Virus record (IMG/VR): IMGVR_UViG_3300042371_001161
Coordinates: 1-64,000 of that record
Direction: 5' to 3' (one strand)
From: a virus
Length of the DNA stretch: 64,000 nt
Part shown: one piece after another, positions 33,405 to 64,000 of the stretch
How the letters are laid out: each line of letters starts with the position of its first letter
Position numbering within the stretch: position 1 is the stretch's first letter
Position numbers and translations under genes: made by a program
Notes under the pieces: generated by a model
Seen by the model: only the letters and a program-made list of their open reading frames with translations
Database searches by the model: none
Told to the model about the DNA's origin: nothing

Positions 33405-34958
33405 TTACAAGAAGACTATGGGATAGAGCGCAGACCAGTTAACCTGGCTTCCCTTACAGGCCGAAGGTGGAATTTTAAAGCCTTTGCCAAGTTCGTCGGT
33501 AGCTCTTCGAATGCATAGCTCTAAGTCGGTAGGTTTCCGAGGCGGGGGCGTTGGGATGATGGGGTCTTTCTTGAGTAGTGGCATAAATATTAATTGGTCC
33601 TCATTCATCCTTACTTCTTGAATTGTTATACTCACTGTTGCTCTACTAATGCTGCCTTGAGCGCTGTCACTAGAGCTCGAGCCGCCAGGGGTCCTTTGTA
33701 TTGAGTTGAATGACATCTCGGCAATCGCCCACTGGCGATATTTGACAGTAGAACTATTTGTTATTCCGCTAAATAGTGAATCGAAATTAGTAAATACGAC
33801 CAACTCTGGTGTTTCTGCCATTTGTTTAAGCAACCTGAGTTTATGTTCGCAAGAATCATAAAGACTTGACACGTAAGAAGGTTGACTGTCGACGACAAAT
33901 TCAAACGATATTTTCATAAGTTTGTTGTTTTTGTAATCGACAAGAGGGAAGTTCGCAACTCTTTCAATGTCAGTCCATGTTACGCCTATGTTCGAATAAG
34001 AAACATTATTGGGCTTTAAAGTAAATTCATACGTAAGAGCAGTTGTATTATCGGCCGTTCGTTGAATCATCGTAGGAAGGTTTTCGGGGGCTGTGGTGGC
34101 GATGGCGGCTTGTCCGCTGCTCACTCGTGCCCCGACATTCATGGAAGTAACGACAGTCGCCCTGCTTCTTTGTCCAAGTACATCTCTGTAACCATTGCTA
34201 TTTTGTGCACCAGAAACGACGCTGGATGATTGATTAATAGAAGAACCCGATATTGCCTTCTTGGTGAGGGAGGCAATGGTGGCCTCTGCTGCCTTGGTAG
34301 ACAATCCCGTAGATTGAAGTAACTTTATTTGTGCAAATGTAAAGTTTTCAAGATTCATATCTTTTGCATCGCCGATAAATTCATTCCAGCGCGACTGTGA
34401 GGGTTCGTCGAAGTCTGGCAGTTCCTGTAATGTTGGCGTATTTTCAAGGAGAAAAAATCTACGTAAAAGTGGGTGATACCAGTACTGCACCCAGTTGACG
34501 CTGTCCGTATCGTCAAACTTGCGCCACTTCGTTATTCTTGTTGACTTATATGGGTTCAGGGATAGGTCCGAGACGAGCTCATACCAGTCAAAAGTGTATG
34601 TTGTCGCTACGTATATTGTATTACCCCATACGATTTTTTCCCCAGATGGGACACTGTCATATTTTGCTGTTCTGGGGTTGGAATAAGATATCTCTTTTGC
34701 GCGAACCTCTTGGTCGTCGGACCACCCAAATTCATCACTTACCTCATATGGAATGAAATCGTAATCCGACACAGCCACGCCCTGAAAGGGAAACCAATAT
34801 GTGTCATCCGAAACTAAAACAAAATCTGCTGGAAAAATTGGATATTGAGTATTCGTAATTTGCTTGTATCTTTTTTTTATTGGATAGTTTTTACGTAAAC
34901 TACTATTACTAGAGTCCGTGTATCCCACTGTATGATAGTGAATGCTTCCTACTGCCAT
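33405..34958 (-). CDS. Tail-tube-initiator-like baseplate protein with long N-terminal extension
   Basis: C-terminal FTLKPNNVSY...LMKISFEF...RATVSITIQE resembles contractile-injection tube-initiator domains; follows the tape measure gene. Confidence 0.55.
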   Translation of the reverse strand: MAVGSIHYHTVGYTDSSNSSLRKNYPIKKRYKQITNTQYPIFPADFVLVSDDTYWFPFQGVAVSDYDFIPYEVSDEFGWSDDQEVRAKEISYSNPRTAKYDSVPSGEKIVWGNTIYVATTYTFDWYELVSDLSLNPYKSTRITKWRKFDDTDSVNWVQYWYHPLLRRFFLLENTPTLQELPDFDEPSQSRWNEFIGDAKDMNLENFTFAQIKLLQSTGLSTKAAEATIASLTKKAISGSSINQSSSVVSGAQNSNGYRDVLGQRSRATVVTSMNVGARVSSGQAAIATTAPENLPTMIQRTADNTTALTYEFTLKPNNVSYSNIGVTWTDIERVANFPLVDYKNNKLMKISFEFVVDSQPSYVSSLYDSCEHKLRLLKQMAETPELVVFTNFDSLFSGITNSSTVKYRQWAIAEMSFNSIQRTPGGSSSSDSAQGSISRATVSITIQEVRMNEDQLIFMPLLKKDPIIPTPPPRKPTDLELCIRRATDELGKGFKIPPSACKGSQVNWSALYPIVFL

Positions 34959-37900
34959 TATCGACGCTCCTTTTCTGAACGTTCCCTATCCTGTAATTTT
35001 GCCATAACCATCTGAGCTATAGCTTCTGGCGAGCTATTTCCGCCGTTTACCTCGATTGAGTAGTAGTTGTTAGTACTACCTCCACCGCTAGTAGCGGATG
35101 AGATTGGTCGCGCGACTGACGTGTCTCCGACTCCAGGGCCGGGAACGACGTGTAGATGGCGGTTTGCCGCACTTCCGTGGAACTCTGCGAATCCACCATT
35201 TGCATGAACCAACTTCGAGTATTGTCCAAGATTTTGACCAACAAGGTCGTACGCCGAGCCAGTGGCATGGTCGGAACTTGGTGAACCAAGAGCATAATTT
35301 CGCAAGCTAGACGTAACTGTTCTCTTGCCAGTTAGCTGGCCATTCATGGCGGCATGTCGGCTCATTGTTTGAGAAAGTTTGCTTGTGGAAGTATCTCCGA
35401 TAGCGCCTCCGCGAGGGGTAGAGGTATCGGGTGGAGCGAGGGTCTTTCCATCGTCGCTCATAACTAGGCCGTTCCTCCACCAGTCCGGCATTTCGCCTAG
35501 CGGAGCCGTAAAGAAACCTTCCATATTCGTATTAAATATTTTGATTGCCTCTTCCAGTCCTGTCGCCGCGGTGCCCATGTTTGTAGCCGCTGTTGCAATG
35601 TCGTCCAATGCAACCGTGTTTTCTTTTGCCAAACCTAACTCACCCATCCCATAGCCAGACAATGCGCTTTGGGCTCCGAGCGCCGGATTGTAGGCGCTTT
35701 CCAACCCTAATGTTCCGGTTGGAATCGCCCCTGCCCCGCCCTTGGGCGCATTTAGCAATCGTTGACGTAAGCCATCTTTGTCGTCGTAGGTTAAATCATA
35801 GTCCTTAATATCACCTAAGAGTTTAAGGAATTGTTCTGGGTTATTTTGAAGTAGCGTTGTTAGTTGCGACTCCAAAACCCCTTCTTCAATTTTCAGATTT
35901 CCATGCTCTTCGCTTGACAGAATGGTTCGAAGTTGCTCCGAGGCTGCACCTACCGCTCCTTTTTCCATGTCTCGCACCGACGCCTGATATATCGGGTCAT
36001 TTACGAATGTTTCGCCTTGTCCAGCGAGCTCAGCACCGGGAGCAAATATTTTCCCATCGGCATTCTTTCCGCCAAAAAGGTCAATGAATCCTTGGTACGC
36101 CATGATGCCGTCACCACCGGCAACTTGTAATAATTGATTAAATGCAGGCTCCATATGCGCACGCATTGCGGTTGTTTTTTCGTCAGCGGTCGTACTAGGG
36201 TCCCTCATTATGTCGCCCAGTTGCCTCAAATTTGAATCAAGAGCGTATGTTGCCTCTTCCTTCTCTCGTTGCGTCTTGAAGGCGTTGGCGCCAGAAAGGA
36301 CAATATCAGCTATTAGGTCGTTTAATTCTGCTCCGGTCTTTTTCAGGGAGCCTGAGAACTTTAAAAGAAGGTCGTTGTATTTTATTGTTGGGTCATACAG
36401 GTCGACGCCAAGCGTTTTTGCCAGCTGCTCTAGCTCTGCTCCGCTCTTACCCGTAGCTCGTGATAATGCGCCGATTCTTTCGGTGTTTTGTTTGTCTATT
36501 CTCGACAACTGCGCTTCGATGAGCGGGTCTGATGTTTTCATGATATGTCGGATAGAGTTGGTTGCTCTGGCTTTTAGAGCGTCTCTCTCCTCTGATGTTA
36601 ATTTTTTACCTGAATCTGTTTTGAAGTATTCGTCGAGTATGCCTTTGGCGTCATTAAATTCTGTTTTCCCATTACTCTCGTAACTTCCGCCACCAGCTGC
36701 AATGGCTGCCGTAATATCCCTATTAAACTGACCTAAAGTTTTTCCAAAGCTTGTCCCCAGGCCCACCATTGCGGCATCTCGGCCCTTGAGGCTTCCGCCA
36801 CCTTTTACTGTTTCTGCATTTCTCTGAAACTGCCGACCCGCTTTCTGGAGGTCAATCATGAAGAAGCTAGCCATGCTGGCGTCTATAATCTTTTTGGCCT
36901 TTTTTAACTTCTCTTTACCAGCATTCACCGCACCCATAATGCCTCCAACAAGAAGGCCCACTCCAGCACCTATCGCCGCGCCATAAGGTCCGAACATTGC
37001 GCCTGCGGCTGCTCCACCGGCTGCTCCAGCGAGTGCTCCAGCCTTCACTGACGTTGCCTTGAGCGCGGAGCCGATTCCTGCAACGGCAGCACCCAACATG
37101 GGGTTCACTTGCGCAACCATTCCGCCTAGCGCAATTGCTCCTTGCATTTCTTCAGGGGCGTATTGGCTTGCCAGTCCTAGTCCCATACCGACGCCCATTT
37201 TCGCGCCCATACTGTTGTTAAACTTTTTTACTCCTCCGCCAAATTTGCTATCATTTCGTGAAATTCTGTTCATATCGCGACGATAAGACAGTCTTCCTCC
37301 AAGCTTCTTTAGGCCTCCTTGCTTATCGCTTTCGCCCCTTCTGGCTAGCAAAGCCCCACGTGCCGTACCTAAATCCTTGTACTCGCCCTTCTCTGCATCC
37401 CATGCCCCAGAGTTCATCTGAGCGAAACCGCCGCGAATGGCGCCAAAGCCACGTCTAGCGAGGTATTGCCCCCTATCGGCGACTCCTACGGCCTTTAGCG
37501 CGCCACGCTTTGCGCTGTTGGCAAGACCTTGCCCGATGCTTACCGTACGACCGTCATTCTTGAATTCTGCGGTCGAGCCTTTCTTCGCCATTATTGCTTT
37601 GACTAGTAGTTTTCTATCGGCGAAAGTATCACTCATTCTGGGTGCACCTGGTCCTTGCTGACCACCCCCCATTACTCCGCCGATTTGAGTACCAACAATC
37701 CCTTTTTGTGTAGCTATTTGTCGCAGCTCATCCATTGAGCGGGCATTGAGAGATTGAGTGGCCCTAAATTTTGCGCTCAGTGGGAGGTTGACATTAGGAT
37801 TGACCGGCTTGGTCGTGCCGTCTGGATTTGTTATCTGACCCCTGTCCGCGTAAGGGTCTCTAGCGCGAGCTCCAGTGGCCGCATATACAACCCCACGGCC

Positions 37901-39817
37901 AATTCTGCTATCTATTTCTTTGCGTTTTACAATTCTGCCATCTATTCCGCTAAGAGCAACCTGATGTCGACTACCAGCTTTTGCGCTTCCAAAAAACTTC
38001 GAGTTCGGGTCGTTTGAAATAGCACGGAATTTTGAACCAGTGACCGACCCAGGCATGATTACTGGACTCGTCGCCGGATATCCGCTAGAAAGGGCCCCTC
38101 CGCCGCCCCCACCACGACCTGAGGCCAGCGATGACGTTGGGCCAGCCGGACCAAGATTTTTGCCACCAATAGAAACATTTTGAGCGTTAACGCTCATGGT
38201 CTTGACAGTTTGAACCCCTGGCATTAAACGGCCCTTTACGCCGCTCATTTTTTTACCTATAATCGAGAATGCCAGCAATGGTGCAAGGGCCGAAGCTAGT
38301 CCTCCGCCAGCCCCACCACTAAACATTTTGGAAATCATATTGAAGACGCTTGTTAGTCCAGATACTAAGTCACTCAAAAAGGGGAGCATATCCATGAACA
38401 TCTTTTTAAGATTCATGAAGAATTTTGATAAAGAATCGATGAGCTCCCCAACACGTTCGCCGAATTCTGCAACTTCATTTTTGTTTTCAACAAGAAGGTC
38501 CTTGAATAAGGTCAGGTTTCCGGCACCTCGTTTAATTGCCTCCCACACTGGAGTAAAAGCTTTATAAAGCACCTTTGCGCCATCTATGAGTGGGCGAGTT
38601 TGCTCAAGGACCATATCCCAACCACGCTTGAATTTAGAGAACCAATCTCCAATTCTGTCGAACATGCCTAACGCGCCAGGGAGGTATTCGCGAATCATTT
38701 TCACGAGCCAATTAGATGCTTTTTCTATTCCGCCAGCAAAGCCGTCGATTATGCCCGTCGCCCCAAAACTATATGAAATAGCGCCCATTATGCGCTGCAA
38801 GTCTCTGCGTATTGTCCCGAATACCCTCTCAAATGAAGCCTTGAGTGGCTCCAAGAACTGGTCGCCAAAATCAGCAAACTCGCCACGCAATCGACTAAAG
38901 TAGCCCTTCATCTGGGAGATTAAAGTACCGTTTACGGCTTCAAACTGACCAGCGACACCGCCTTTGTCCGCCAACTGCCCGGACATCAGAAGTTCTTTAA
39001 ATTGTTCCTTGGTTTTTATGGTTGTCCCTTTTAGGGCTTTTTCCATTTCTGGGCCAAGTTTTTTAGCTTCTGTTATTACGTCAGAAATACTCTTTTTACT
39101 GTTAGAAAGATTTTCGATAACAATAGATACTTGTTCTAGGCCCTTTGCGGGGTCTTGGCCCGCTGAACCAAAGTCCATCAAAGCCTTGATTGATGCACCG
39201 CTTTTATTTATTTGTGCGGTATTCATCGACTTGGACATGGTTCCGTAAGCCTTGTTGAGTGCTTCGACTCCGAGAGTCGCCAGACTTGCGTCGCTCTGTA
39301 GGTTCCGCATGCCCATTCTTGTCTGATTCATCGCTGAACCAAATGCAGGGGCTCCCTTGCCTCTGTAGGCATAAATGGCGGCCTGCTGCTCCCTGATAGC
39401 GGCGCTCGCTGCCGATATTGCGACGACTACCCCCGCCGCACCAGCAGAAAGCATTTGCATCGCCCCCCTATATGCTTTGACAAGTAATTGCCCAGCTGCA
39501 AATAGTGCGTGGACTCCTATCATCGCAGCTCCAAGGGCTGCCATTTCTATAACGACACCCTTGATAGCCATACCGAGGAACTTAGTGAGCCCTTTTCCTG
39601 CCATTTTGGCGCCAGCATCTATGGCGTCGAAACTGCGTTTCCAGCCTTTTGTGGTATTTGCTAGTTTACTACCCGATTGTTGAGCGAGAGCTTCGCCCCT
39701 GCCGCTGGAAAGTTTTTTTACTCTTTTTTCTAGTAATGAAAGCTGAGCTATTGCTTTAGTGAGCTCCCTAGTTTGGGCCTCAAACTTAATTTTAATATCA
39801 ACTATTTCATCAGCCAT
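34958..39817 (-). CDS. Tape measure protein with C-terminal M15-like (LAS) metallopeptidase domain
   Basis: 1619 aa Ala/Gly-rich helical protein after tube and chaperone genes; DHATGSAYD (H-x6-D) and HLHV. Confidence 0.9.
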   Translation of the reverse strand: MADEIVDIKIKFEAQTRELTKAIAQLSLLEKRVKKLSSGRGEALAQQSGSKLANTTKGWKRSFDAIDAGAKMAGKGLTKFLGMAIKGVVIEMAALGAAMIGVHALFAAGQLLVKAYRGAMQMLSAGAAGVVVAISAASAAIREQQAAIYAYRGKGAPAFGSAMNQTRMGMRNLQSDASLATLGVEALNKAYGTMSKSMNTAQINKSGASIKALMDFGSAGQDPAKGLEQVSIVIENLSNSKKSISDVITEAKKLGPEMEKALKGTTIKTKEQFKELLMSGQLADKGGVAGQFEAVNGTLISQMKGYFSRLRGEFADFGDQFLEPLKASFERVFGTIRRDLQRIMGAISYSFGATGIIDGFAGGIEKASNWLVKMIREYLPGALGMFDRIGDWFSKFKRGWDMVLEQTRPLIDGAKVLYKAFTPVWEAIKRGAGNLTLFKDLLVENKNEVAEFGERVGELIDSLSKFFMNLKKMFMDMLPFLSDLVSGLTSVFNMISKMFSGGAGGGLASALAPLLAFSIIGKKMSGVKGRLMPGVQTVKTMSVNAQNVSIGGKNLGPAGPTSSLASGRGGGGGGALSSGYPATSPVIMPGSVTGSKFRAISNDPNSKFFGSAKAGSRHQVALSGIDGRIVKRKEIDSRIGRGVVYAATGARARDPYADRGQITNPDGTTKPVNPNVNLPLSAKFRATQSLNARSMDELRQIATQKGIVGTQIGGVMGGGQQGPGAPRMSDTFADRKLLVKAIMAKKGSTAEFKNDGRTVSIGQGLANSAKRGALKAVGVADRGQYLARRGFGAIRGGFAQMNSGAWDAEKGEYKDLGTARGALLARRGESDKQGGLKKLGGRLSYRRDMNRISRNDSKFGGGVKKFNNSMGAKMGVGMGLGLASQYAPEEMQGAIALGGMVAQVNPMLGAAVAGIGSALKATSVKAGALAGAAGGAAAGAMFGPYGAAIGAGVGLLVGGIMGAVNAGKEKLKKAKKIIDASMASFFMIDLQKAGRQFQRNAETVKGGGSLKGRDAAMVGLGTSFGKTLGQFNRDITAAIAAGGGSYESNGKTEFNDAKGILDEYFKTDSGKKLTSEERDALKARATNSIRHIMKTSDPLIEAQLSRIDKQNTERIGALSRATGKSGAELEQLAKTLGVDLYDPTIKYNDLLLKFSGSLKKTGAELNDLIADIVLSGANAFKTQREKEEATYALDSNLRQLGDIMRDPSTTADEKTTAMRAHMEPAFNQLLQVAGGDGIMAYQGFIDLFGGKNADGKIFAPGAELAGQGETFVNDPIYQASVRDMEKGAVGAASEQLRTILSSEEHGNLKIEEGVLESQLTTLLQNNPEQFLKLLGDIKDYDLTYDDKDGLRQRLLNAPKGGAGAIPTGTLGLESAYNPALGAQSALSGYGMGELGLAKENTVALDDIATAATNMGTAATGLEEAIKIFNTNMEGFFTAPLGEMPDWWRNGLVMSDDGKTLAPPDTSTPRGGAIGDTSTSKLSQTMSRHAAMNGQLTGKRTVTSSLRNYALGSPSSDHATGSAYDLVGQNLGQYSKLVHANGGFAEFHGSAANRHLHVVPGPGVGDTSVARPISSATSGGGSTNNYYSIEVNGGNSSPEAIAQMVMAKLQDRERSEKERR

Positions 39818-46118: not shown

Positions 46119-46676
46119 CTATCTGTCGGAATTGGGTGGTCTTTCTATTGAAAGCACTTCTGGGGGCACAGAATTCGGAGGAGCCTCTATCGGAACCCAT
46201 GCTCTAGCGTAATTGTGTTCTTTTATTTTTCTGACTTTGAACAGATTTCCGTCAAGCATTAATGCAAGTTCTTCTGCTCGCATGCAGAGAATGTCCTGGA
46301 AATCGGATGCGCCGTACTTTCCGGAACGCCTGACGGACCTGATGATTTTAGAAGCTTTCTCCGCAATCACGTGTGAATGCCCTCGATTTAGGCGAAGGTG
46401 CATCATCATCGCGTCAACCTGGTCGACGTCATGAAAAACTACTGGAATTTTCCCCTCGGTCTTTTTTAAAATCTGCGGAATACTGGTTGCCAAAATAAAA
46501 CGCTCGGAACCATCAATTATCTCCCCGGTAGATAAGCGAGCATGTATCGGTTGAATGAATCCAAGCTCAGATAGCGATGCTGAAATTATTAACATCTCCG
46601 GACGCAGGGTGTACGTAGCTCGCCACTCAGGAGTAGATAAGCGCGATGGCTCTACGTATTCAATATTAATATTCAT
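46119..46676 (-). CDS. ParB/Srx-like protein (IbrB/YbdM-like, degenerate active site)
   Basis: GFIQPI, IIDGSERF, LRLNRG. Confidence 0.75.
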   Translation of the reverse strand: MNINIEYVEPSRLSTPEWRATYTLRPEMLIISASLSELGFIQPIHARLSTGEIIDGSERFILATSIPQILKKTEGKIPVVFHDVDQVDAMMMHLRLNRGHSHVIAEKASKIIRSVRRSGKYGASDFQDILCMRAEELALMLDGNLFKVRKIKEHNYARAWVPIEAPPNSVPPEVLSIERPPNSDR

Positions 46677-47805
46677 ATATGTCTGCTCTCTCTAGTTCTA
46701 CTGCCCTGACAGTGTGCGCCTTTGTCTTGGGTCCAACTGGTGTTGGAGAGTTAACGTCAATGTCGTTCAGCATCAAATTTCTTATAAGCCAGCTAACTGG
46801 GTACCCGTGTGGGTCTGATAGGTGCTTTTTTCTAAACTTAGAAACATAAGCACGGGCTTCCGTTTGACGTCGTTCGCCCACCAAGTATTGTTCGATGAAA
46901 CTTGATGCACCATCAAATCCAAACTGAGAGTAGATATCAATCAGCTTCTCCGAGTCAAACTCTGGCCAAAGTCTGCGTTGTGCGTCTATGTATGGGAAGC
47001 ACTCGTAAAGCCTGTCGTAGAATTCTGGTTCCGTAGCAATAACGTCTCCAATCCGCCTTATTGCAGTCGCATGCAAGGGGATTCCAACTCGCGTGTTGCT
47101 TCCGGTGATTGTTGCGAGGTCATAGTACTTGCAGTATTCTGCGTCGTGTTCCTCGATGATGAATTTAAAAACATCATCCGTATTCCAGTCATATATGACT
47201 TTGGCGAACTTGAGTGGTATTCCCTTTTTTAACTTGTACGGCGTATTTATGTAATTCTCGTGAAGTTTCTGAACAATCGACCTGTATCTAACCATCGACT
47301 CGCTTGCTCTGACTCCAGTCAGAAAGGCAACATTTCCTTTTTTGCCCTGCATTGTGTAGTAATCGGTCTGTTCAGGCAATGAAACGCTGTGACTTAGTCC
47401 AAAATTCTTGCCGCTGATTGCCCATGGGGGCATCGGTCGCACCCACCTGCCTTGTTCAAATCTTTCTTGACTCCACAGGAGGGTCGTTATCCTGTAACCA
47501 AGAACCCAAATTTCTGCTGGATATGGCAAGCAGTACCACTCCATGTCAACCCAATCGTAGTTGCGGACCCTCTCTACGTAGTCCATGACGACAGGGCTCA
47601 CCATTTCTTCGTCGCGGAAAATCACCTTAACAGGGCCTAGGCCACGCTCTTCGTGGACCTCCTTGGCAAGGAGAAGAACGGCGGTTGAGTCTTTGCCGCC
47701 AGAAAATTGAACACACACCGTGTCAAAGGTGTCGTATACGTGACGTATTCTTTGACGAGCAGCGTCAACGCAGCTCATATCCAAGAACAGGCGTTGACGA
47801 GTCAT
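46666..47805 (-). CDS. PP-loop PAPS-reductase-family protein (IbrA/YbdN/DndC-like)
   Basis: VQFSGGKDS PP-loop, VIFRDEE, TGVRASES..R, IYDW...DV. Confidence 0.88.
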   Translation of the reverse strand: MTRQRLFLDMSCVDAARQRIRHVYDTFDTVCVQFSGGKDSTAVLLLAKEVHEERGLGPVKVIFRDEEMVSPVVMDYVERVRNYDWVDMEWYCLPYPAEIWVLGYRITTLLWSQERFEQGRWVRPMPPWAISGKNFGLSHSVSLPEQTDYYTMQGKKGNVAFLTGVRASESMVRYRSIVQKLHENYINTPYKLKKGIPLKFAKVIYDWNTDDVFKFIIEEHDAEYCKYYDLATITGSNTRVGIPLHATAIRRIGDVIATEPEFYDRLYECFPYIDAQRRLWPEFDSEKLIDIYSQFGFDGASSFIEQYLVGERRQTEARAYVSKFRKKHLSDPHGYPVSWLIRNLMLNDIDVNSPTPVGPKTKAHTVRAVELERADIYEY

Positions 47806-50245: not shown

Positions 50246-50761
50246 TCATAAATTGTCATTATTAATGTCCCCGAAAGTCCATTTACCATCAAGGCAATCC
50301 CATAGCGAACGGTCGATGGCCGTATCTTCAAGGTCAAACTCTTCTAATAAGTTTTTGTGCGCAATGATTGCCCTGCGGTAAAAGTCAACTTCCTTCCACC
50401 CGTCGTTATTACTGGTTTCCCCTGTGTCAATCATTAGGCAGACGTCGTCAAGACGGCGGTCTACGTGATATTTGAATCTCTTGATTCGGGTTGCTTTTTC
50501 ACCATAGTAACGAAGTGCTTCCGTCGTTAGTTTCCCACCTTTGGCACCAAGAGAAGAATAACGCTGCTGGTCTGATTCACTATCTGCCTCTATTGAGTCA
50601 ATTTGTCTTTGTAGGTTGTCCGAAAGAGCTATAAGAGCACGCTTCCATCTATCCCAATGTTCTGGATTTTGAAGTTCTTCGCGTTCTTGAAGTGAAGTTT
50701 TGTTTTTTACTTCTTCGGCAACCATTCTTGCAAAGGCGTCGTCGTTCCATTTTGTATTCAT
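50246..50761 (-). CDS. Hypothetical helical protein
   Basis: Probable start MNTKWNDDAF at 50761; longer upstream starts overlap the neighbouring gene. Confidence 0.65.
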   Translation of the reverse strand: MNTKWNDDAFARMVAEEVKNKTSLQEREELQNPEHWDRWKRALIALSDNLQRQIDSIEADSESDQQRYSSLGAKGGKLTTEALRYYGEKATRIKRFKYHVDRRLDDVCLMIDTGETSNNDGWKEVDFYRRAIIAHKNLLEEFDLEDTAIDRSLWDCLDGKWTFGDINNDNL

Positions 50762-50801
50762 TGTTTTATTAATCTGTGATGTCTCCATTAGGGCCTGCAA
50801 C

Positions 50802-51593
50802 TTATTTCCAGGCTGGGCAAATTGACTTGAAGCCGCACCAATTGCAAAGAATTGACTTGTTTGGCTCAAAATGACCCTGAGCAATTCTCAGGTCGATGCC
50901 GGCTTTAACCTCAGCAATGACAGAAGCAACATTTGCAATGTCTTCTTCGGTTACTCGTTTTTCAAATCTGACGCCGTCTTTTAGATAAAGCAATTCAATC
51001 TCAAAGTTTTTTGCCTCTATTCCGGCACTTCCTAGAAGTTGAGTGTAAATTATTAATTGGAAATACTTATCATCAACATACTGTTTTTTGGGAGTTTTCC
51101 CGGTTTTGTAATCACAAACCTTGGCCGTATCTCCATCCACATGAAGGCGGTCTATGTATCCGTGGAGCTTCACTCCAGAGATTTCCCCCTCTACATGCTC
51201 TTCAATCGCCCATGGCTGAACCTCCATAGGTTGCTCTAGGGCCCAAACATTTTCAACACACCACCAAGCGGTCCACCTAAAAAGTTTGATTTCTTTTTCT
51301 GAACGAATAATGGTTTTTACCATTTCTTCCCATTTTGACTCCCACAGGTCGCGAGCAATCAATCTCGCAGTGTCTTGAGTTCTTTGCTCAGGAGGAAGGG
51401 CGTACATTGTTTCGAGAATCTCATGCACGAAATTTCCAAGCATTGTGGATTCAGTGGGAGAATCTTGCAAGCCATCAATTTTAGTGAACTTAAACTTTAA
51501 TGGACACTGACGGAATGTTCCAATTGAAGACGGTGAAAGCATGTTTGGGGCTTTCATGACAACCGACTGTTCACTTGTCATTTGGTGACTCAA
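50802..51593 (-). CDS. RecB-family PD-(D/E)XK exonuclease
   Basis: LSPSS...CP, GNFVHEILE, GYIDRL...DYKTGK, QL.IY, C-terminal CNWC...CP. Confidence 0.9.
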   Translation of the reverse strand: MSHQMTSEQSVVMKAPNMLSPSSIGTFRQCPLKFKFTKIDGLQDSPTESTMLGNFVHEILETMYALPPEQRTQDTARLIARDLWESKWEEMVKTIIRSEKEIKLFRWTAWWCVENVWALEQPMEVQPWAIEEHVEGEISGVKLHGYIDRLHVDGDTAKVCDYKTGKTPKKQYVDDKYFQLIIYTQLLGSAGIEAKNFEIELLYLKDGVRFEKRVTEEDIANVASVIAEVKAGIDLRIAQGHFEPNKSILCNWCGFKSICPAWK

Positions 51594-52269
51594 TAATTGT
51601 CGCTCCGAAAGATAAACGCATTGCTTCTACTATGAGAGCCTTAATTTCTTCTTCTGTCACTGTAGTGCGGGTCGGCTTTGGCTTTCCAGAAGAGTATTTC
51701 GCCCAAAAGTCATTTAGGGACTCTTTTTGCTCTTTGTCAAGAGTCTTTGTGACGCCTACAAAGTTGTTCCATTCTTCGTCCAATTCAGAAGATGGTTCAA
51801 TATTGGGGCTCGGCTCAACGTGAGGCATGGATGCGCCAATTGCGTCTTCGGCATCCATGGCATCGGAAGAGCGTGCTAGATAAAGTCCGACACCAAGTAG
51901 CTGTGCTGCTTTTTTAAGGGCATCCGAGACTGCTCCCTTGAAATCGTTGCCAAGGTCAACAGGCTTATTGTCTTTTCTCTGACGCTTTACTGACTGTCCA
52001 CCGAAGCCGTGCTTAGTTATCGTGCATCCATCAATCGTTGCCGTAAGGGAAACGTGCGCAATTATTTCGTCGGTATCGATTAAATCACGAGCAACAGAAA
52101 TGATTTCGAATGACCAGTTGCTCATTCCCAGCACCTTATTTAGGCGATTTATAACTTCACTAATTGGCAGATAAATTAACTCAACACCACTTTTTATGAG
52201 TGTTCGTTCCATTTCTTCTGGAAACGGCTCCGCCAAGAGACGGGCGATATCGTTGCTGTTCTGTGTCAT
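51571..52269 (-). CDS. Rad52/Rad22-family ssDNA annealing protein
   Basis: LIYLPISEVINRLN.VLG..NWSFE, GAVSDALKKAA..LGVGLYL. Confidence 0.88.
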   Translation of the reverse strand: MTQNSNDIARLLAEPFPEEMERTLIKSGVELIYLPISEVINRLNKVLGMSNWSFEIISVARDLIDTDEIIAHVSLTATIDGCTITKHGFGGQSVKRQRKDNKPVDLGNDFKGAVSDALKKAAQLLGVGLYLARSSDAMDAEDAIGASMPHVEPSPNIEPSSELDEEWNNFVGVTKTLDKEQKESLNDFWAKYSSGKPKPTRTTVTEEEIKALIVEAMRLSFGATIIESPNDK

Positions 52270-52280
52270 TTTTCCTCTAT

Positions 52281-52775
52281 TCAGTTTTTCGGTTTACGGA
52301 CAATAATGCTGGTTTTGAGCTCGCCGACTTCGCTAAAGCTATCGGCGTTAATCCCAATTTTGTTCAGTTCTTTAATTCGCCAATACGAAGGGGCGCAGTA
52401 TGTAAGCATTTCTTCTGCTATTTGTTTTGGAGATTTTGTAACTTCGCCAGTATCCATATCAACCGACATTTTTACGATACGGTCCGCAACGGCAGAACCC
52501 AGGTCTAGGTGCTTCCAGCCCTTTCGGTCATAGGAAGATTTCTTTTCAATGGTTGTGCCATCTGGAAGGAGGAGCGTGTCAGAAGCGCCCATAATGTCAG
52601 CAAAAAGATTTGCAAATTGTTCGTAGACAACAGACATGTCTCGTTTGAGGAAGTTTAACTCTGCAAGAACTTCTCCAGCTTCTTCTGCTGTTGGGTCCCC
52701 TGCAAGGAATGACGAAACATGTCCGTCAAGCTCTAAAATAGCCGAACGGAGTTCCTGGATTTTTTCTAAGCTCAT
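52281..52775 (-). CDS. Hypothetical protein
   Basis: 164 aa ORF in operon with recombination genes. Confidence 0.65.
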   Translation of the reverse strand: MSLEKIQELRSAILELDGHVSSFLAGDPTAEEAGEVLAELNFLKRDMSVVYEQFANLFADIMGASDTLLLPDGTTIEKKSSYDRKGWKHLDLGSAVADRIVKMSVDMDTGEVTKSPKQIAEEMLTYCAPSYWRIKELNKIGINADSFSEVGELKTSIIVRKPKN

Positions 52776-52812
52776 ATTGGTCCCTTTAGTATGTGTCTAA
52801 TTGCTTGCTAGT

Positions 52813-54126
52813 TTAGAGGAGTATAGAAGCTTTCCTGCGTCTAGGCAACCCCAAGCCGGTAAGAAAAGTAAAAGCCCCAACAGCGGAGTCTACTTGGTCG
52901 TCGTGATTAGCGGACTCGGGGAAAGATGAAAATTCATCAAGGAAATCTGTGAGCCATGGAGCCCTAACTAGGCGAACATTCCCGTTTGCAGCAGATGCAG
53001 CGAATGGACGCGCTCTCGTGACCTTGTCTCCGGTTGGCCTCATAGCTCCAAAATCGTACCCAGGAACCACATATCTGGCGTACTGGTCAACTAGCGCCTT
53101 GCCAGATGAACCAGGCTCCTGCTCCATCCTGACGGCCACTCCGTATCCGTCCTCTGCCGCCGTCTGGGCAATTAGTTGTTCTACTTTCTCGCCCCTTACT
53201 CGTGCTTTTTTGATGTCAAGAATGTACGAAACGCCACCGTCGAACATCATGAGGGTTCCGACTGTCCAGTCAGGGTCAGGGTATGACGCGGTGGGCTCGG
53301 ATGCTGCAAGGTCCCAGAATCTAACGACTCTGGCAGAATTGGTTATGACGGGGATTTCGCTGGGGTCAATAATTATGAAAGATTCGCGGTCAAAAAGGCT
53401 ACCGAGGGTCGTCGACCACCAGTCGCCTTCTTCTAGACGTCGCCGTTCAACGGGGTCTAGGGCAGACAGGGCCTGCCTATATGAATCTGCATCAATTCCT
53501 GGGTTGTCTTTAAGCGTGGATGGAACAAAGACCCGTCCAGTCTCTCTGCCCTCTACGATGAACCGCTGACGAACCCAATTCGGAGCAGGGTTGGATGCCG
53601 CCCTCATCCGAAGCGGAATCTGCGCCAAAGGACCACTTGCGGGACGACGCAGACGAGAGAAAAGGTATCTATAGTCGGATTCTCGGATTTCTGTAACTTC
53701 GTCCATCCCTATGAACTGAAACTCAGAACCTTTGTATCTCAGATAGTCGTTAACGTTATTTAGGTAGCCGAATGAAATGCGAGCCCCAGATGGGAAGGTG
53801 GCCACGAAACTATTGTTATTCCAGTGAACATCGTCATAGTTACTCATCCACGATTTAAAGCGGTCCATCAAGGCACCTGGCAGAGAGAGGTCGGCAAATG
53901 TTCTACGGAAGAGGATTGCTGAATAGCCAGGGACATCCACATACTGTAGGGCGGCCATCAAAAGGGCTGAGGACTTGCCTCCACCAGCCGCCCCACCAAA
54001 GAGACCTTCAAGGCAGTTTGTCCTCAAAAAAACTTTTTGATTCAAAGATGGCTCTTCTGGGCAAAAAGGAGGCAGCTTGGGGCTCAGATACTCTAGAACT
54101 TCTTCCCAGTTAGATTTTGATGCCAT
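52813..54126 (-). CDS. terL: Terminase large subunit
   Basis: GGAAGGGKS Walker A, FIGMDEVT Walker B, MRAASNP, RFWDLAAS, HDDQVDS nuclease motif. Confidence 0.95.
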   Translation of the reverse strand: MASKSNWEEVLEYLSPKLPPFCPEEPSLNQKVFLRTNCLEGLFGGAAGGGKSSALLMAALQYVDVPGYSAILFRRTFADLSLPGALMDRFKSWMSNYDDVHWNNNSFVATFPSGARISFGYLNNVNDYLRYKGSEFQFIGMDEVTEIRESDYRYLFSRLRRPASGPLAQIPLRMRAASNPAPNWVRQRFIVEGRETGRVFVPSTLKDNPGIDADSYRQALSALDPVERRRLEEGDWWSTTLGSLFDRESFIIIDPSEIPVITNSARVVRFWDLAASEPTASYPDPDWTVGTLMMFDGGVSYILDIKKARVRGEKVEQLIAQTAAEDGYGVAVRMEQEPGSSGKALVDQYARYVVPGYDFGAMRPTGDKVTRARPFAASAANGNVRLVRAPWLTDFLDEFSSFPESANHDDQVDSAVGAFTFLTGLGLPRRRKASILL

Positions 54127-54195
54127 AAGTTAACGTAACCAATCAAATAGCGCCCATGGTGCCCGAGGGCCAACTTCTGCGCTACTGTATCTTAC

Positions 54196-54462
54196 ATGCC
54201 ACCAGCATCAGAGAACATAAAAAAACAACGCAAAAAATCACCCGGAAGACTTAGGGTGGTATTATTATCTCCAGTTTTATTCCTCAAAAAAACAAAATCT
54301 TCACTAGCAGCCAAGGCGAACAGAGGAACTTTCGCAAATTTGTTAATGGTTTGCTTTATAATGTTCTGTAGTATTGGTACAGGTATGATATTCATGCCTG
54401 CCGGTTGGGTGGTTGCTGGTGTTTGTTGCGGACTTTTCGCTTTGTTATTGGGCCTCGGGTAG
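54196..54462 (+). CDS. Small membrane protein
   Basis: Basic N-terminus and two C-terminal hydrophobic helices; TACTGT 7 nt before ATG suggests a leaderless start. Confidence 0.6.
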   Translation: MPPASENIKKQRKKSPGRLRVVLLSPVLFLKKTKSSLAAKANRGTFANLLMVCFIMFCSIGTGMIFMPAGWVVAGVCCGLFALLLGLG

Positions 54463-54469
54463 GTAGCGC

Positions 54470-56581
54470 ATGCGTTGGAACCCGTCTCAAAATAAAAATA
54501 TAATCCCCCCGTCCCGCAAGGACCTGGGCTATGGAGCTCCGGTATCCATAAACCCGTCCCTAGCAGGGAAAGCGTATAAGGATGGATGGGACATTGAACG
54601 CGCCTATCGCGAGGGAATGTCCAAGATTACTTGGGTCAATAGATGTATTGATGCGATTGCTGGAAATCAGGCTCGCCTTCCAATTATTCTTAGGAAAGAC
54701 AACTCTAATCAGGGGGAAATAGTTCGCGGCCGCGAGGCCAACAGGTCTACCCTCTTAGAGCTCTTGAATAATAAGGCGAATGTAGGAGAAAACTCTTTTA
54801 TTTTCCGATACAGATTGTCGGCTCAGCTGATGCTCGGTACTCGAGGGGCATTCGTAGAGAAAATTAGAGGACGGGATGGGGGAATTATTGCCCTCAACCT
54901 TCTTCCACCTCAATCAACGGCACCAATACCGGACCCCAAAAAGTTCGTATCAGGGTACGAAGTACAAATGCCCTACGGAGAAAAGCAGTTCTTAAAGCCA
55001 GAAGATGTTTGCTGGATAAGGAGACCGCACCCTCTCGACCCTTATCTGTCCCTTACGCCACTGGAAGCGGCTGGGGTTGCCATTGAGATAGAAAACCTAG
55101 CCAAAATCTACAACCGCAACTACCTGCTTAATGATGGTCGTCCTGGCGGCATTTTGGTTGTTCGTGGAGAGATGGAAGAAGACGATAAGGAGGAGCTTAG
55201 AAATAGGTTCCGCGGCAATCTGGCAAGGGCTGGTCATACAACAGTTATTGCTGCCGATGACGGTGTTGATTTCGTCGATACTTCGGCCAATCCGCGCGAT
55301 GCGGCATATGTTCAGATGCGTCAAATAACAAAAGAAGAAATTCTGTCAGCATTTGGTGTTCCTGAATCCGTCATAGGAAACGCTTCTGGAAGAACATTCA
55401 GTAATGCCGGAGAAGAAATCCGTGTTTTTTGGATGGAAACAATGCTCCCCCATCTTGAGCCAATCGCCAGAGCTCTTGATGAACTCGATGACAAGTATTA
55501 TCTAGATTTTGACACGTCAGAAGTCCCAATTCTTATGCTCTACAAGCAGGAAAGAGACAGGTACCTGTTGCAGGAGTTCCAGACTGGCTTAATTAGTGCA
55601 AACGAGTATAGAATCGGTTCTTCTCGTAAAGAAGTTGAGGCAGACCTCGCAGACTCCTTGCTCCAGAACCCCAATCTCATTCCGATTGCTAACACCAAGA
55701 AGAAAATGGAAGAAGGCCAGACTGAAGTCCCAGGTATGCCAGGAATGCCTCCGGGAATGCCAGGAATGCCGCCGGGAATGCCGGGAATGCCTCCAGGTGT
55801 GCCAGGAATGCCCCCAGGACCAGTTCCGCCGGGCGGCGAACCTGTACCGCTGGACGTCAATACGATGGCTGGGGCACTTGCGGAGTCCGCAGCCAGTGGC
55901 CAGCTTGCGCAAACAACAACCCCACCAGAGGCCTTTGGAGGCGGCGTACAGGCTCCAATGCCCCCAGGACCTATGTCCGTGGCATCGTCGCCGGATAACG
56001 AGATACAGGTAAAGTCCACGGAAGAAAAACAAGAGACCAAAGACGCAATTGACCGCAATGAACAGGCGATAGAGCGATGGACGAACATTCTAGCTCGTGG
56101 CATGGAGAGAGTTATTGAGCGCCAGCAACGAGTAGTTCTTGAAAAGGCAAGCGGGACAAAATCAAGGAAAGCCCTAATGCACGGCACGCTTGATATTGAA
56201 TCCGTATTGTCAATAGATACGTGGAACAAGCAGTTCGATGAGGATATTCGTCCTGTTGTGTCATCAATTATTAATGATTCTTTTGAATCGAGAGTTAATG
56301 ACGCATCCACAAACGGTCTCAAAATCAAAGCCTTGCCAGCAAAAGATGTTCGAGCAATGGTTGATGCACATACATTGAGAATTAAGAAAATTAACGAGTC
56401 TCATTTCAATGAAATTAACTCTTTAATGCTCAAATCTTTCGTGTATGCGGATGAAGAAAAACGGTTTAGTTTCTTTCGCGATGGTCTCGTAGAAATGTTC
56501 ACGGATTTTTTTGCGCACCAACAAGAATTACTGGCAGAGCGCGAGACAAGGTCGGCATGGAGTTTCGGCCAGACAGTTTAA
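54470..56581 (+). CDS. Portal protein with PGM repeat linker and C-terminal extension
   Basis: WVNRCIDAIA, GTRGAF, RRPHPLDPY.SLTPLEAA, NDGRPGGIL, EILSAFGVP, ISANEYR. Confidence 0.92.
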   Translation: MRWNPSQNKNIIPPSRKDLGYGAPVSINPSLAGKAYKDGWDIERAYREGMSKITWVNRCIDAIAGNQARLPIILRKDNSNQGEIVRGREANRSTLLELLNNKANVGENSFIFRYRLSAQLMLGTRGAFVEKIRGRDGGIIALNLLPPQSTAPIPDPKKFVSGYEVQMPYGEKQFLKPEDVCWIRRPHPLDPYLSLTPLEAAGVAIEIENLAKIYNRNYLLNDGRPGGILVVRGEMEEDDKEELRNRFRGNLARAGHTTVIAADDGVDFVDTSANPRDAAYVQMRQITKEEILSAFGVPESVIGNASGRTFSNAGEEIRVFWMETMLPHLEPIARALDELDDKYYLDFDTSEVPILMLYKQERDRYLLQEFQTGLISANEYRIGSSRKEVEADLADSLLQNPNLIPIANTKKKMEEGQTEVPGMPGMPPGMPGMPPGMPGMPPGVPGMPPGPVPPGGEPVPLDVNTMAGALAESAASGQLAQTTTPPEAFGGGVQAPMPPGPMSVASSPDNEIQVKSTEEKQETKDAIDRNEQAIERWTNILARGMERVIERQQRVVLEKASGTKSRKALMHGTLDIESVLSIDTWNKQFDEDIRPVVSSIINDSFESRVNDASTNGLKIKALPAKDVRAMVDAHTLRIKKINESHFNEINSLMLKSFVYADEEKRFSFFRDGLVEMFTDFFAHQQELLAERETRSAWSFGQTV
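55732..55822 (+). repeat. Coding repeat PGMP/PGMPP within the portal
   Basis: ccaggaatgcc / ccgggaatgcc units. Confidence 0.8.
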
Positions 56582-56639
56582 AGAAATTACTATTTCAGTA
56601 AAATAAATAATATTTTCTTTAAACAAATAACTTTGGTGA

Positions 56640-56675
56640 TAGTTGCACCGGACAGACTTCTAAATCGCTTATTAT
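56640..56675 (+). promoter_or_regulatory. Putative promoter TAGTTGCA(C)-N21-TATTAT upstream of the protease polyprotein
   Basis: Same motif and spacing as 42665-42700. Confidence 0.55.
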
Positions 56676-56707
56676 TTTCAATAGACACGACGTGAAGGGT
56701 CTATCGA

Positions 56708-59700
56708 ATGCCATCAGAATTGTTTGAATATAAGTCGTCTACGCTCGGGCACTCCGACTCCATCAATTTGGATGAAGCGCAGGGAATTGTCGAATGCTTC
56801 GTGGCTGGCATCGGCAACAAGGACTCTGTGGGCGACATCGTTGCCACTGGAGCATTCACGAAGAGCCTCCAACGCCGTAAGCCGCGCGTTGTCTGGGGAC
56901 ACAGTTGGAATGACCCCATTGGCAAGGTTCTAGAGATTTACGAAGTTCCGAACACGGATAATCGCCTTCCTATGAAAATGAAGATGGCCGGAATTGGTGG
57001 CCTGTTCGCTCGAGTTCAGTTCAATCTCAATTCAGAAAAAGGTCGCGAAGCATTCGCCATGGTCGCCTTCTTTGGCGAAGAGCAGGAGTGGTCGATTGGT
57101 TACAAGACACTTCGAGCTCAGTTTGACCAGAAATCCCAAGCAAATATCATTTATGAACTTGAGTTATATGAGGTATCTCCGGTTCTGCATGGCGCAAACC
57201 AGCTAACTGGGACTATTTCCGTTAAGTCCGAAGAGTTGTCCGGTGGAATCTTGATGTCCATGATGAACGAAGAAAACCCAATTGACAAGGCAGAGATAGA
57301 AAAGCAGCTTGCTGCAATTTTGGGCGCAAAAGTATCTTTAATGGAAGTTAACGACGAAGAGATTACGTTTGCGCGAAGAATGGACAACGGAGAAGTTGGC
57401 CGCTACAAGTGTGGATTCAGCAATAATCGCGGACATTATATGTTCGGTGCGCCGCGCCCCATTGTTGTAATGCCCGTGCGTAAGCCCATTGCTCCTGTAA
57501 GCGCAATGCCAATGGCGATGCCAGGTATGCCCCCAAATGAGCCACAAAGAATTGTTCGGCCTTCTCAAATGCCATCAATCCCAGTTGCTATTAAGCCAGG
57601 CGAAAACGGCAACCAGATAGTTCCTTTGCCACCAGTGCAATACGAAAACGATAATGGAAGTCGATTTGACCCAAGTAATCTTGACCAAGAAGAAGCTGAC
57701 TTAAGAGATGCTCTTTTAAAAATCGTAAAGCGTCACGGAAAGTTTAACGAAGATTCCGAGGGAGTATGGGCAGCGTATACCCCTGCTGCACAAAATGAAG
57801 TTGCCGGAATCGGCGTCAAGTGCTCCAACTGCGTCTTTTATCAGGGTGGAAGCGCCTGCAAGATAATCGACATGGAAGTAGAACCTGAAGGTAAGTGTCG
57901 TTTTGCCGTCATCCCAAAGGGCGTTGTCAAGGGAGCCGGCTCAAAAGCATATGAACTCGACGAGGAATTCGCCGAAGAAGATTACGTCGCTGACCTCGAG
58001 GTGAAATACCCCGGGGAATTAGCAGTTGCAGGACTTCGTGGAGTGGTCGGCAAGCGGAGAAAGAAGCGTCGGAGCTTTAAGTTCTTGAGTGAATTTGGTT
58101 CCAAGAGTGAAGATTTTGAAGACAAGCCATACTTACTTCCAGTTGTACCTCAGTTCGCGTTCCAAGTAAAACAAGTTCTTGACCCAATCTTTGATTACCA
58201 TGGTGTTGATTCTTACGTCGACACAAGCGGTATCTTCATGACTTCTGGCGTTACTTACGAATTGATTGAGGCAGTCGACAACGCTGTCGCAAATTTAAAA
58301 AAAAAATCCTTAAGTGAAAACAACCTAGAGTGGAAAGCAGCCGGGTATCGCCTCGGCAGAGCTATCAGCAGTCGATTAATTGACCGCCCAAACATCGGCG
58401 GAGGTCGTTCTCGCGGTCGTTTCTTCACATCTGTGGGTGCGGAAGACTTTGACCCATTCACTGCACGCGACTCCAACCTTAACGGCATCGTAGGAGAGGG
58501 ACTGTTCCTGCGTGGAGTTCCGCTTGCCGTAAATGACCCAACACCAGATGGTCCTGGCTCTATTCGTAACCCCAAGCCATCCCCCAGGCAGGTTGCGAAG
58601 CCGAATGCTGCAGCAATTTCTCGAGCGGAAATTCAAGTAGAGAAAATAACAAAACCTAAAGAGCGCCAGAAACTTTCCTCTGGAAGCGAGCTTGTAAATC
58701 TTCCGCGAATAGACGACCCGGATGTTGATTCGGCAGAAAAATATGGCGCAGCAGAGTCGCAGCGTGACGAGCTTCAAGGCGTTTTGGATGGAGCATCAGA
58801 TTCTGACCAAATAAAGAAGTTAAAGAAGGCCATTGCGGAAATCGACAAATACATGGAACGTGTCGAGAAGATGGCCGAAGGCGAAATGGCTGATACTGAA
58901 AAGCCAAAGAAAAAGCCCGTAAAGAAGCAGGTAGAAAAGACCAGTCAGGGTCTTTCAAGCGGCTACGGCAAGTATCTAAATAAGCCCGAGGCGAAGCGGA
59001 CGCAAGACGAGCGCCGCAAATATGACGGCCCCCTGTCCTCGCTTTCATCAGGAAAGTTGGCAGACAAGGCAGAGCTTCCCGAAGGCTCCAGCCAGCTTGA
59101 AGAGTTATACAAGGAAATGGCAAAAGATATTGTCGCTATTTTGCAGGAACTCGCCAACAATCCAGACGCATCAAAAAGATGGGAATTGCCATGGCGTAAT
59201 GCCGAGAATTATGCGCGGAATCCAACTAGTGACCGCATCTACCAAGGCATGAATCAGATGATTTTGTCCCTTACGGGCTCAGCTCGCGGCTACAAAATGA
59301 ATCGATGGGCCGGAGAGGGACAGTGGAAAAAGTTAGGCGGCAAAGTAAAACCGGGAGGCAGAAACAGGGGAGTGCAGGTTCTCGTTCCTCGTGAAGGACG
59401 AAGCTTTACTGATTCAACTGGCAAGCAAGTTGAAATGGGTCGCTACTATTCTGTTCAAACGGTATACAACGTCGATGAAATTGCAGGACTCCCAGAAAGT
59501 TTCTACGAGCTTGGTGATGTAGAAATAAACCAAGAGCAACGGTTGCAGGATATAGAAAATGTCATTAAGGAAATAGGTCCTTCTTTTGTCGAATCTCTAG
59601 GCTCGCAGGCTTTTTATCGCCCCGCCACCGACAAAATTCATATGCCTGCATTTGAACAGTTCAAGGATGCTTTGGCTTTTTATGGAACTGCAATGCATGA

Positions 59701-64000: not shown

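Follow-up and report, generated by a model that had tools for sequence, protein, structure and literature searches.

We analyzed a window of 64,000 nucleotides, taken from the start of a single virus record 119,748 bp long (IMGVR_UViG_3300042371_001161) from an uncultured lake phage, in which a giant open reading frame (ORF 1) downstream of the portal gene contains five copies of the tetrapeptide L[SA]SG. This tetrapeptide is the form taken in the clade of this phage by a junction peptide, with the family consensus [R/K/S]-[L/F]-S-S-G-[A/R/K], which stands at the module borders of proteins presumed to leave the virion with the DNA, namely three giant cargo polyproteins and the tape measure protein. 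The peptide is strongly enriched, is selected at the protein level, occupies invariant positions, marks the borders of modules, adjoins a point of gene fission in a relative, and is replaced by other peptides from clade to clade. We consider it probable from these comparisons that the junction peptide is a site-specific endoproteolytic processing signal; that it is cut, as well as when and by what, we infer from the sequences.

Enrichment of L[SA]SG in ORF 1 and in the other giant proteins

A Pfam search confirmed the order and positions of the domains that a sequence-only reading of the window had described for ORF 1. Downstream of the N-terminal Peptidase_S78 domain are ArdC-N (aa 799-907), the MPTase-PolyVal zincin (PF18818, aa 948-1071; 135.5 bits against a cut-off of 27.5) and a helicase from about aa 1224, with UvrD/AAA_19 signatures from about aa 1239. 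Several unrelated conflict-type domains are thereby strung on one chain, namely ArdC-N, MPTase-PolyVal and the UvrD-type helicase in ORF 1, and RNase_T in a second giant protein, giant 3. The same reading had placed five L[SA]SG motifs in ORF 1, and a translation scan found all of them where it had put them, each coordinate being that of the Leu codon (Table 1), with no sixth copy anywhere in the full 2887-aa sequence. The excess over the 0.13 copies expected from composition is large, as none of 20,000 shuffles contained five or more, and in an unbiased count of 4-mers LSSG was the most repeated word of the protein. The related word MTSG at aa 511-514 (window 58238-58249) was considered as a further site and rejected, since it lies within a conserved folded block (GIV-MTSG-VSYELI) and is conserved as part of that domain.

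Rough ORF calling over the complete record yields four proteins of at least 1500 aa, referred to here as giants: ORF 1, giant 2, giant 3 and the tape measure protein. Together they contain 23 copies of L[SA]SG versus 0.82 expected, compared with 3 copies versus 2.0 expected in the other 116 ORFs. The sequence-only reading had placed the sites of ORF 1 correctly, but had seen only one of the four carriers. The tape measure protein has LSSG at aa 36 (39701-39712) and aa 576 (38081-38092) and LASG at aa 564 (38117-38128), and doublets of closely spaced sites are present. The codons used at the sites are diverse, with Ser encoded by both TCN and AGY, Leu by six codons and Gly also by varying codons, indicating selection for the peptide rather than for the DNA sequence.

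The sites had also been described as lying in charged or disordered linkers and never within folded domains. The second part of this description was borne out, the cores of the helicase, ArdC and zincin being free of L[SA]SG. The first part was borne out for the sites at aa 656, 749 and 1183, which have a predicted local distance difference test score (pLDDT) below 50 in an AlphaFold2 (AF2) model of aa 640-1200, but not for the site at aa 779, which is taken up below. Across the four giants, the flanks (±15 residues) of all 24 occurrences of [LF][SA]SG are poor in hydrophobic residues (fraction 0.197 versus 0.280; p = 2e-7).

Conservation of the sites among relatives

Relatives were collected by a portal search of IMG/VR, which returned 80 loci with 58-98% portal identity, nearly all of them with a giant ORF downstream of the portal gene. 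The enrichment extends to this wider set: 45 distinct ORF 1 homologues (119,362 aa) contain 336 copies of [LF][SA]SG versus 10.1 expected (33-fold), whereas 53 distinct portals encoded next to them, used as a negative control, contain 5 versus 3.3 expected. The most frequent 4-mer of most of the homologous ORFs is LSSG, or else RLSS or FSSG, with a maximum of 16 copies in 3141 aa where 0.1 would be expected.

In an alignment of 23 sequences, the site at aa 779 reads [LFI]SSG in 22 of the 23 between variable flanks, and S141, S142 and G143 of alignment A1, which belong to this site, are invariant. The site at aa 1183 is [LF][SA]SG in 18 of the 23 homologues, and the motif is invariant in the column of the site at aa 2347. 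At aa 656 and 749 it is invariant in closer kin, and the former aligns as LSSG, LASG or FSSG in many homologues. The residues that flank the aligned motif columns cannot themselves be aligned. A logo built from 169 non-redundant sites reads [R/K/S/T]-[L/F]-S-S-G-[A/R/K], with the information essentially confined to positions -1 to +4 and with flanks rich in D, E, K, R, G, S and P. A variable Gly-rich region retains one or more sites in all tape measure homologues, and many of them have one near aa 36-60.

Sites as borders of cargo modules

The S78 protease and the conserved middle domain of ORF 1 are constant among the relatives, while the cargo content varies. Of the ends of BLAST homology blocks, a fraction of 0.296 lie no more than 25 aa from a motif; for random positions the fraction is 0.139 ± 0.012. 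The C-terminal 306 residues of giant 3 illustrate this relationship, as homology there breaks exactly at the LSSG at aa 3167: in some phages it is limited to the stretch ahead of this motif, in others to the 135-aa module that follows. Depending on the clade, the peptide immediately ahead of this C-terminal module is LSSG, GMSS or STRS. Likewise, the RNase_T exonuclease module is bordered on both sides by the peptide of the clade concerned, which is LSSG in this phage and ISGRMG and RFSSG in the complete relatives G009 and G001, respectively. In G001, moreover, the module that follows LSSG 2477 of giant 2 is a stand-alone gene of 337 aa, whose start lies some 30 residues past the point that corresponds to the motif.

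A giant of G009 (50408..60796; L221:408-10793), which belongs to a clade with another peptide, carries Zeta-toxin, DnaJ, NUDIX and sigma-70 region 4/HTH domains as cargo, indicating that cargo modules are freely exchanged.

Replacement of the peptide between clades

Within the LSSG group, one clade has F in place of L at every site, in ORF 1 and in the tape measure protein concertedly, and another mixes RFSSG and RLSSG. In the complete genome G001, the big ORFs, the tape measure gene included, account for 27 copies, with 2 elsewhere. Other clades carry different words at the same joints, throughout the genome. The complete genome G009 shows no enrichment of LSSG and instead has S-I-S-G-R-M-G in four giants, a looser ASGRMG at aa 326 of the S78 protein and two copies of GRMG at aa 47-60 of the tape measure protein, although its capsid protein is 75% identical to that of the phage studied here. 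The complete genome G011 has G-[ILV]-T-G-[AS]-M in the giants, at aa 648 of the S78 protein and at aa 46 and 853 of the tape measure protein, and further fragments carry [LM]STRS, GM[SR]S or GFxSSTG. The proteins that bear the code are alike in the three complete relatives, and a loose core is common to all codes, consisting of a hydrophobic residue, S or T, and a small residue. As many sites have switched together across a genome, a trans-acting reader that changed is implicated; to judge from the sequences, this reader must have changed between close clades.

Probable cleavage at the junction peptide and its candidate readers

In the scheme that we favor, the N-terminal S78 protease and the middle domain of ORF 1 would bring the polyprotein into the prohead. 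The chain would then be cut into a protease unit (aa 1 to about 656), two short pieces (aa 660-748 and 753-778), an ArdC-zincin protein (aa 783-1182), a helicase (aa 1187-2346) and a C-terminal module (aa 2351-2887). The fusion to S78 and the position in the head module suggest that this cargo is delivered into the recipient cell with the DNA. The proposal of the sequence-only reading that the motifs are processing sites gains comparative support from the joint invariance of the sites, the breaks in homology, the peptide-flanked exonuclease and the separate gene of G001, while the cleavage itself is our interpretation of these patterns.

Several observations weigh against cleavage. The case for it is a comparative one, and a motif for binding or modification would leave the same comparative signature, save for the gene fission and the doublets. 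No recognizable protease co-varies with the code among the clades compared, and no ORF that starts or ends at a motif, which would have served to locate the scissile bond, was found in the fetched loci. Finally, the site at aa 779 falls in a confident segment of the AF2 model (pLDDT 84-90), 14-17 residues ahead of the part that superposes on ArdC of R388 (residues 157-464 of the model on 6i89; Z 24), and according to this model it is a domain edge and not a floppy linker.

The S78 protease, the zincin and a papain-like module of giant 3 were each examined as the protease matching the peptide, and none fits cleanly. The N-terminal S78 prohead protease of ORF 1, acting either inside the prohead or after co-ejection with the cargo, is a possible cutter, though we would not expect it to be the right one. 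It is the only recognizable protease found in every clade examined, and its polypeptide bears the code of its own clade (at aa 656 in this phage, 648 in G011 and 326 in G009), in parallel to the autocleavage of SPN3US gp245. The core shared by the codes also counts in its favor, as it resembles the preference of T4 gp21 and of herpesvirus assemblin for a hydrophobic residue at P3 and a small residue or Glu at P1. In addition, the capsid protein of this clade has QL[ST]SRE (aa about 92-99) near the expected delta-domain junction, which resembles the first three residues of the code.

However, the S78 domains of G009 and G011 are 72-76% identical to that of this phage despite their other codes, and three relatives with three different codes (G009, L198 and L200) have the same variable S78 residues. 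The stretches around GH and WSIGY, which after HK97 gp4 are taken to hold the putative catalytic His and Ser, are unchanged across the LSSG, ISGRMG, STRS, GM[SR]S and GFxSSTG clades, the two motifs being invariant in 10 clade representatives. The capsid protein is the canonical substrate of S78 in HK97-type systems, yet its N-terminal region lacks the clade code, and QL[ST]SRE differs in distant relatives without co-varying with it; a delta-domain junction co-varying with the cargo code was looked for among the clades and none was found. Moreover, tails assemble separately from heads, and the tape measure protein, assembled outside the head, has conserved sites that include mid-protein ones. 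The near constancy of S78 across the codes, the capsid without code and the sites in the tape measure protein make the earlier claim of self-cleavage by the prohead protease, in the manner of T4 and phiKZ, doubtful.

We give about the same weight as to S78 to an unrecognized, fast-evolving phage protease, either a module internal to a giant or a universal head-module protein, which could be active in the head, or else once cargo and tape measure protein meet again after ejection. A quickly changing reader is what genome-wide code switching among phages with 75% identical capsids calls for, and universal divergent proteins do exist, such as a 673-aa protein (76958..78979; 34-45% identity) and the C-terminal module of giant 2 (28-34% identity). 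The C-terminal module of giant 3 (aa 3171-3305; genome 102029-102433) also has an invariant Cys, two His and an Asp, shows a papain-like topology in AF2 and always follows the clade code. None of these candidates has a protease signature by Pfam, PHROGs or PDB sequence searches, the last of which gave no match with the universal head-module proteins. The papain-like module was not found by phmmer in the complete genomes G001, G009 and G011. Although its fold is supported, it was rejected as the reader, the module not being universal and its nearest structures being deamidases or amidases (SseI, the C3 domain of PMT, NTAQ1 and protein-glutaminase) with weak E-values (0.04). A broader form of the idea, which we regard as less likely than not but rate slightly above either of these two cutters, is that each clade has a private genome-wide code, read by such a protease on all proteins that leave the virion, head cargo and tape measure protein alike, possibly only after ejection. 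Matched pairs of protease and site would then have switched at least five times among phages with 75% identical capsids.

It is rather unlikely, in our estimation, that the peptide stays uncut and serves as a docking or modification motif, for example in loading, chaperoning or threading of the ejected proteins or as a target of O-linked modification of Ser. Any co-evolving reader would fit the comparative signature, and the predicted order at aa 779 suits such a role. Nevertheless, the peptide stands strictly between unrelated enzyme modules, the stand-alone gene of G001 starts close past a site, and sites occur as closely spaced doublets. The uncut giants would also have to work as chains of 2800-3300 aa holding many incompatible enzymes.

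Returning to cleavage, we regard the MPTase-PolyVal zincin within ORF 1, which would cut its own flanks first in line with the autoprocessing idea of Iyer et al. (2017), as an improbable cutter. The ArdC-zincin module lies between the two best-conserved sites, at aa 779 and 1183; all [LF]SSG relatives checked have the zincin, and once ejected the enzyme could also reach the tape measure protein. Zincins commonly favor a hydrophobic residue at P1', and a cut before L or F with R or K at P1, as in the logo, would fit this preference. Against this, PF18818 is absent from the complete genomes G009 and G011, whose own codes are equally strong, indicating that the zincin is not the general reader, and G006 combines a zincin with the code GM[SR]S. 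Furthermore, ArdC and TraC1 are reportedly transferred uncut, and the N4 vRNAP is reportedly packaged uncut (PMC5512222).

A host protease acting after ejection or during assembly, with the code following the host, seems equally improbable. A single code for head cargo and tape measure protein would thereby be explained, and a host role in cleavage of a T5 tail protein was described by Zweig and Cummings (1973), as cited in a later study (10.1101/2022.09.20.507954). Conversely, six very different codes in close phages would need host enzymes of very different specificity. Lastly, chance, composition or a DNA-level repeat can practically be dismissed, as the shortness of the motif is the sole point for chance, which the shuffles and the enrichment in homologues with portals at background refute, and a DNA-level repeat was rejected on the codon diversity.

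Relation to known systems

The prohead proteases of T4, phiKZ, 201phi2-1 and SPN3US cut many head and ejection proteins at motifs of three residues, L/I-x-E for T4 gp21, S/A/G-x-E for phiKZ and A-x-E for SPN3US gp245, and their specificity drifts between homologues (PMC5694885). As in T4, phiKZ and SPN3US, the lake phage has a short consensus in several virion-type proteins, and a protease gene in the head module, here S78 beside the portal gene, whose polypeptide bears its own motif. The differences are considerable. Those systems use a homologue of gp21, a motif ending in Glu and mostly propeptides removed from separate proteins, whereas here the protease is of the HK97-type S78 family and the code lies between the modules of proteins of 1600-3300 aa and in the tape measure protein. 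The capsid protein is also cut at the protease motif, at least in T4, but here it has no code; and the code is swapped between clades while S78 is nearly constant.

Another precedent is that of the polyvalent proteins (Iyer, Burroughs, Anand, de Souza and Aravind, 2017), which combine ArdC-N, zincin and helicase domains and for which autoproteolytic release is proposed (PMC5512222). ORF 1 and giant 3 likewise carry strings of conflict-type domains (ArdC-N, MPTase zincin, helicase and exonuclease), have head genes as neighbors and are presumably injected. No cleavage signal is named in the passages of that paper considered here, and assemblin-like peptidases are described there only at C-termini (PMC5512222), in contrast to the N-terminal S78 and the defined junction peptide reported here. 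The code of these phages also persists in relatives without the zincin.

Among the polyproteins of eukaryotic RNA viruses, those of picornaviruses and potyviruses are cut by a cognate protease (3C and NIa, respectively) at a recurring, lineage-specific short consensus. The junction peptide similarly recurs at module junctions and differs between lineages, but in a dsDNA genome with many ordinary genes alongside, and the products would be virion cargo and not replication proteins. We know of no signal shared with head proteins for the cleavage of the tape measure proteins of lambda and T5. These proteins, lambda gpH and T5 pb2, undergo cleavage at a defined position in the course of tail morphogenesis (10.1101/2022.09.20.507954), whereas the tape measure protein studied here uses the clade-specific code of the head cargo. 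A full-text literature search on LSSG, phage and cleavage returned no paper, and searches on polyproteins, cargo and maturation proteases returned nothing relevant.

If the junction peptide is a cutting signal, these would be tailed phages with a true polyprotein strategy, in which a few giant genes deliver a dozen or more separate enzymes into the host, anti-restriction, helicase, exonuclease and toxin-like modules among them. The modules act as exchangeable cassettes with a short code at their edges, by which unannotated giant proteins from metagenomes, of which there are thousands, could then simply be divided into functional units. The genome-wide switching of the code would amount to a natural experiment in protease-substrate co-evolution that could supply several mutually independent pairs of protease and site.

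Genomic setting and other observations

The features discussed are listed in Table 1.

Table 1. Coordinates of the junction sites, domains and genes discussed. Position 1 is the first nucleotide of the window and of the record; positions above 64,000 lie beyond the window.
Feature	Position	Strand	Description
Junction site 1, K-LSSG-S	58673..58684	+	aa 656-659; ends the roughly 650-aa protease unit
Junction site 2, G-LSSG-Y	58952..58963	+	aa 749-752; end of a stretch with pLDDT < 50
Junction site 3, S-LSSG-K	59042..59053	+	aa 779-782; just before ArdC
Junction site 4, A-LASG-K	60254..60265	+	aa 1183-1186; between zincin and helicase
Junction site 5, G-LSSG-A	63746..63757	+	aa 2347-2350; after the helicase; hydrophobic fraction of flank 0.03
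ORF 1	56708..64000 in the window, ends at 65371 beyond it	+	2887 aa; S78 protease, conserved middle domain, cargo modules
Peptidase_S78 domain (HK97-type prohead protease)	56786..57217	+	aa 27-170; Pfam PF04586, 45.8 bits versus a cut-off of 21
ArdC-N and MPTase-PolyVal zincin module	59102..59920	+	aa 799-1071; Pfam
SF1/UvrD-type helicase module, between sites 4 and 5	60266..63745	+	Pfam UvrD-helicase and AAA_19; homology block aa 1187-2346
Large terminase	52813..54126	-	precedes portal and ORF 1
Portal protein	54470..56581	+	directly upstream of ORF 1; Pfam Phage_portal, 1.3e-51; context and negative control
Tape measure protein	34958..39817	-	1619 aa; identified from the gene order sheath-tube-chaperone-ORF
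Giant 2	67258..75807		2849 aa; 4 L[SA]SG
Giant 3	92519..102436		3305 aa; 11 L[SA]SG; RNase_T exonuclease domain
Major capsid protein	80485..81834		no L[SA]SG

Cultured phages gave no match to ORF 1 by megablast and only ArdC-type matches by tblastn. The nearest portals of cultured phages are those of actinophages (Brevibacterium phage Cantare and Gordonia phages), with 44% identity, and the layout of the lake phage is not shared by Gordonia phage GMA6, the one actinophage checked. The G+C content of the record is about 46%. A freshwater actinobacterial host would be our guess.

Within ORF 1, an A-rich run at window 58294-58320 (aa about 529-534, LKKKS) marks the end of the conserved middle domain, and LKKK is kept in most homologues. 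At three loci (L037, L038 and L053) the protease ORF stops near the A-rich run, at 543-551 aa, and is followed by a separate giant ORF.

In giant 2, the block K.L.G...RCPPGTPAANQFTD..G.NCFG.S (aa 201-259; genome 67858-68034) is almost invariant in 48 distinct sequences and throughout the code clades. Its RCPPGTPAANQFTD..NCFG part was considered as a Gln...Cys protease and rejected, as it has two Cys and no conserved His follows downstream in the 48 distinct sequences; this N-terminal block may be a loading or plug element. Between ORF 1 and giant 2, at genome 65502-67244, is the gene for a 580-aa protein, the N-terminal half of which is extremely acidic and repetitive, while the C-terminal half is conserved across all four complete genomes with 54-64% identity. 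This protein could be a scaffold or a DNA mimic. The tail/neck block contains a PAPS-reductase-like gene (window 46666-47805, minus strand; phrog_2302, E 2e-76), whose product is 67-79% identical in the three complete relatives.

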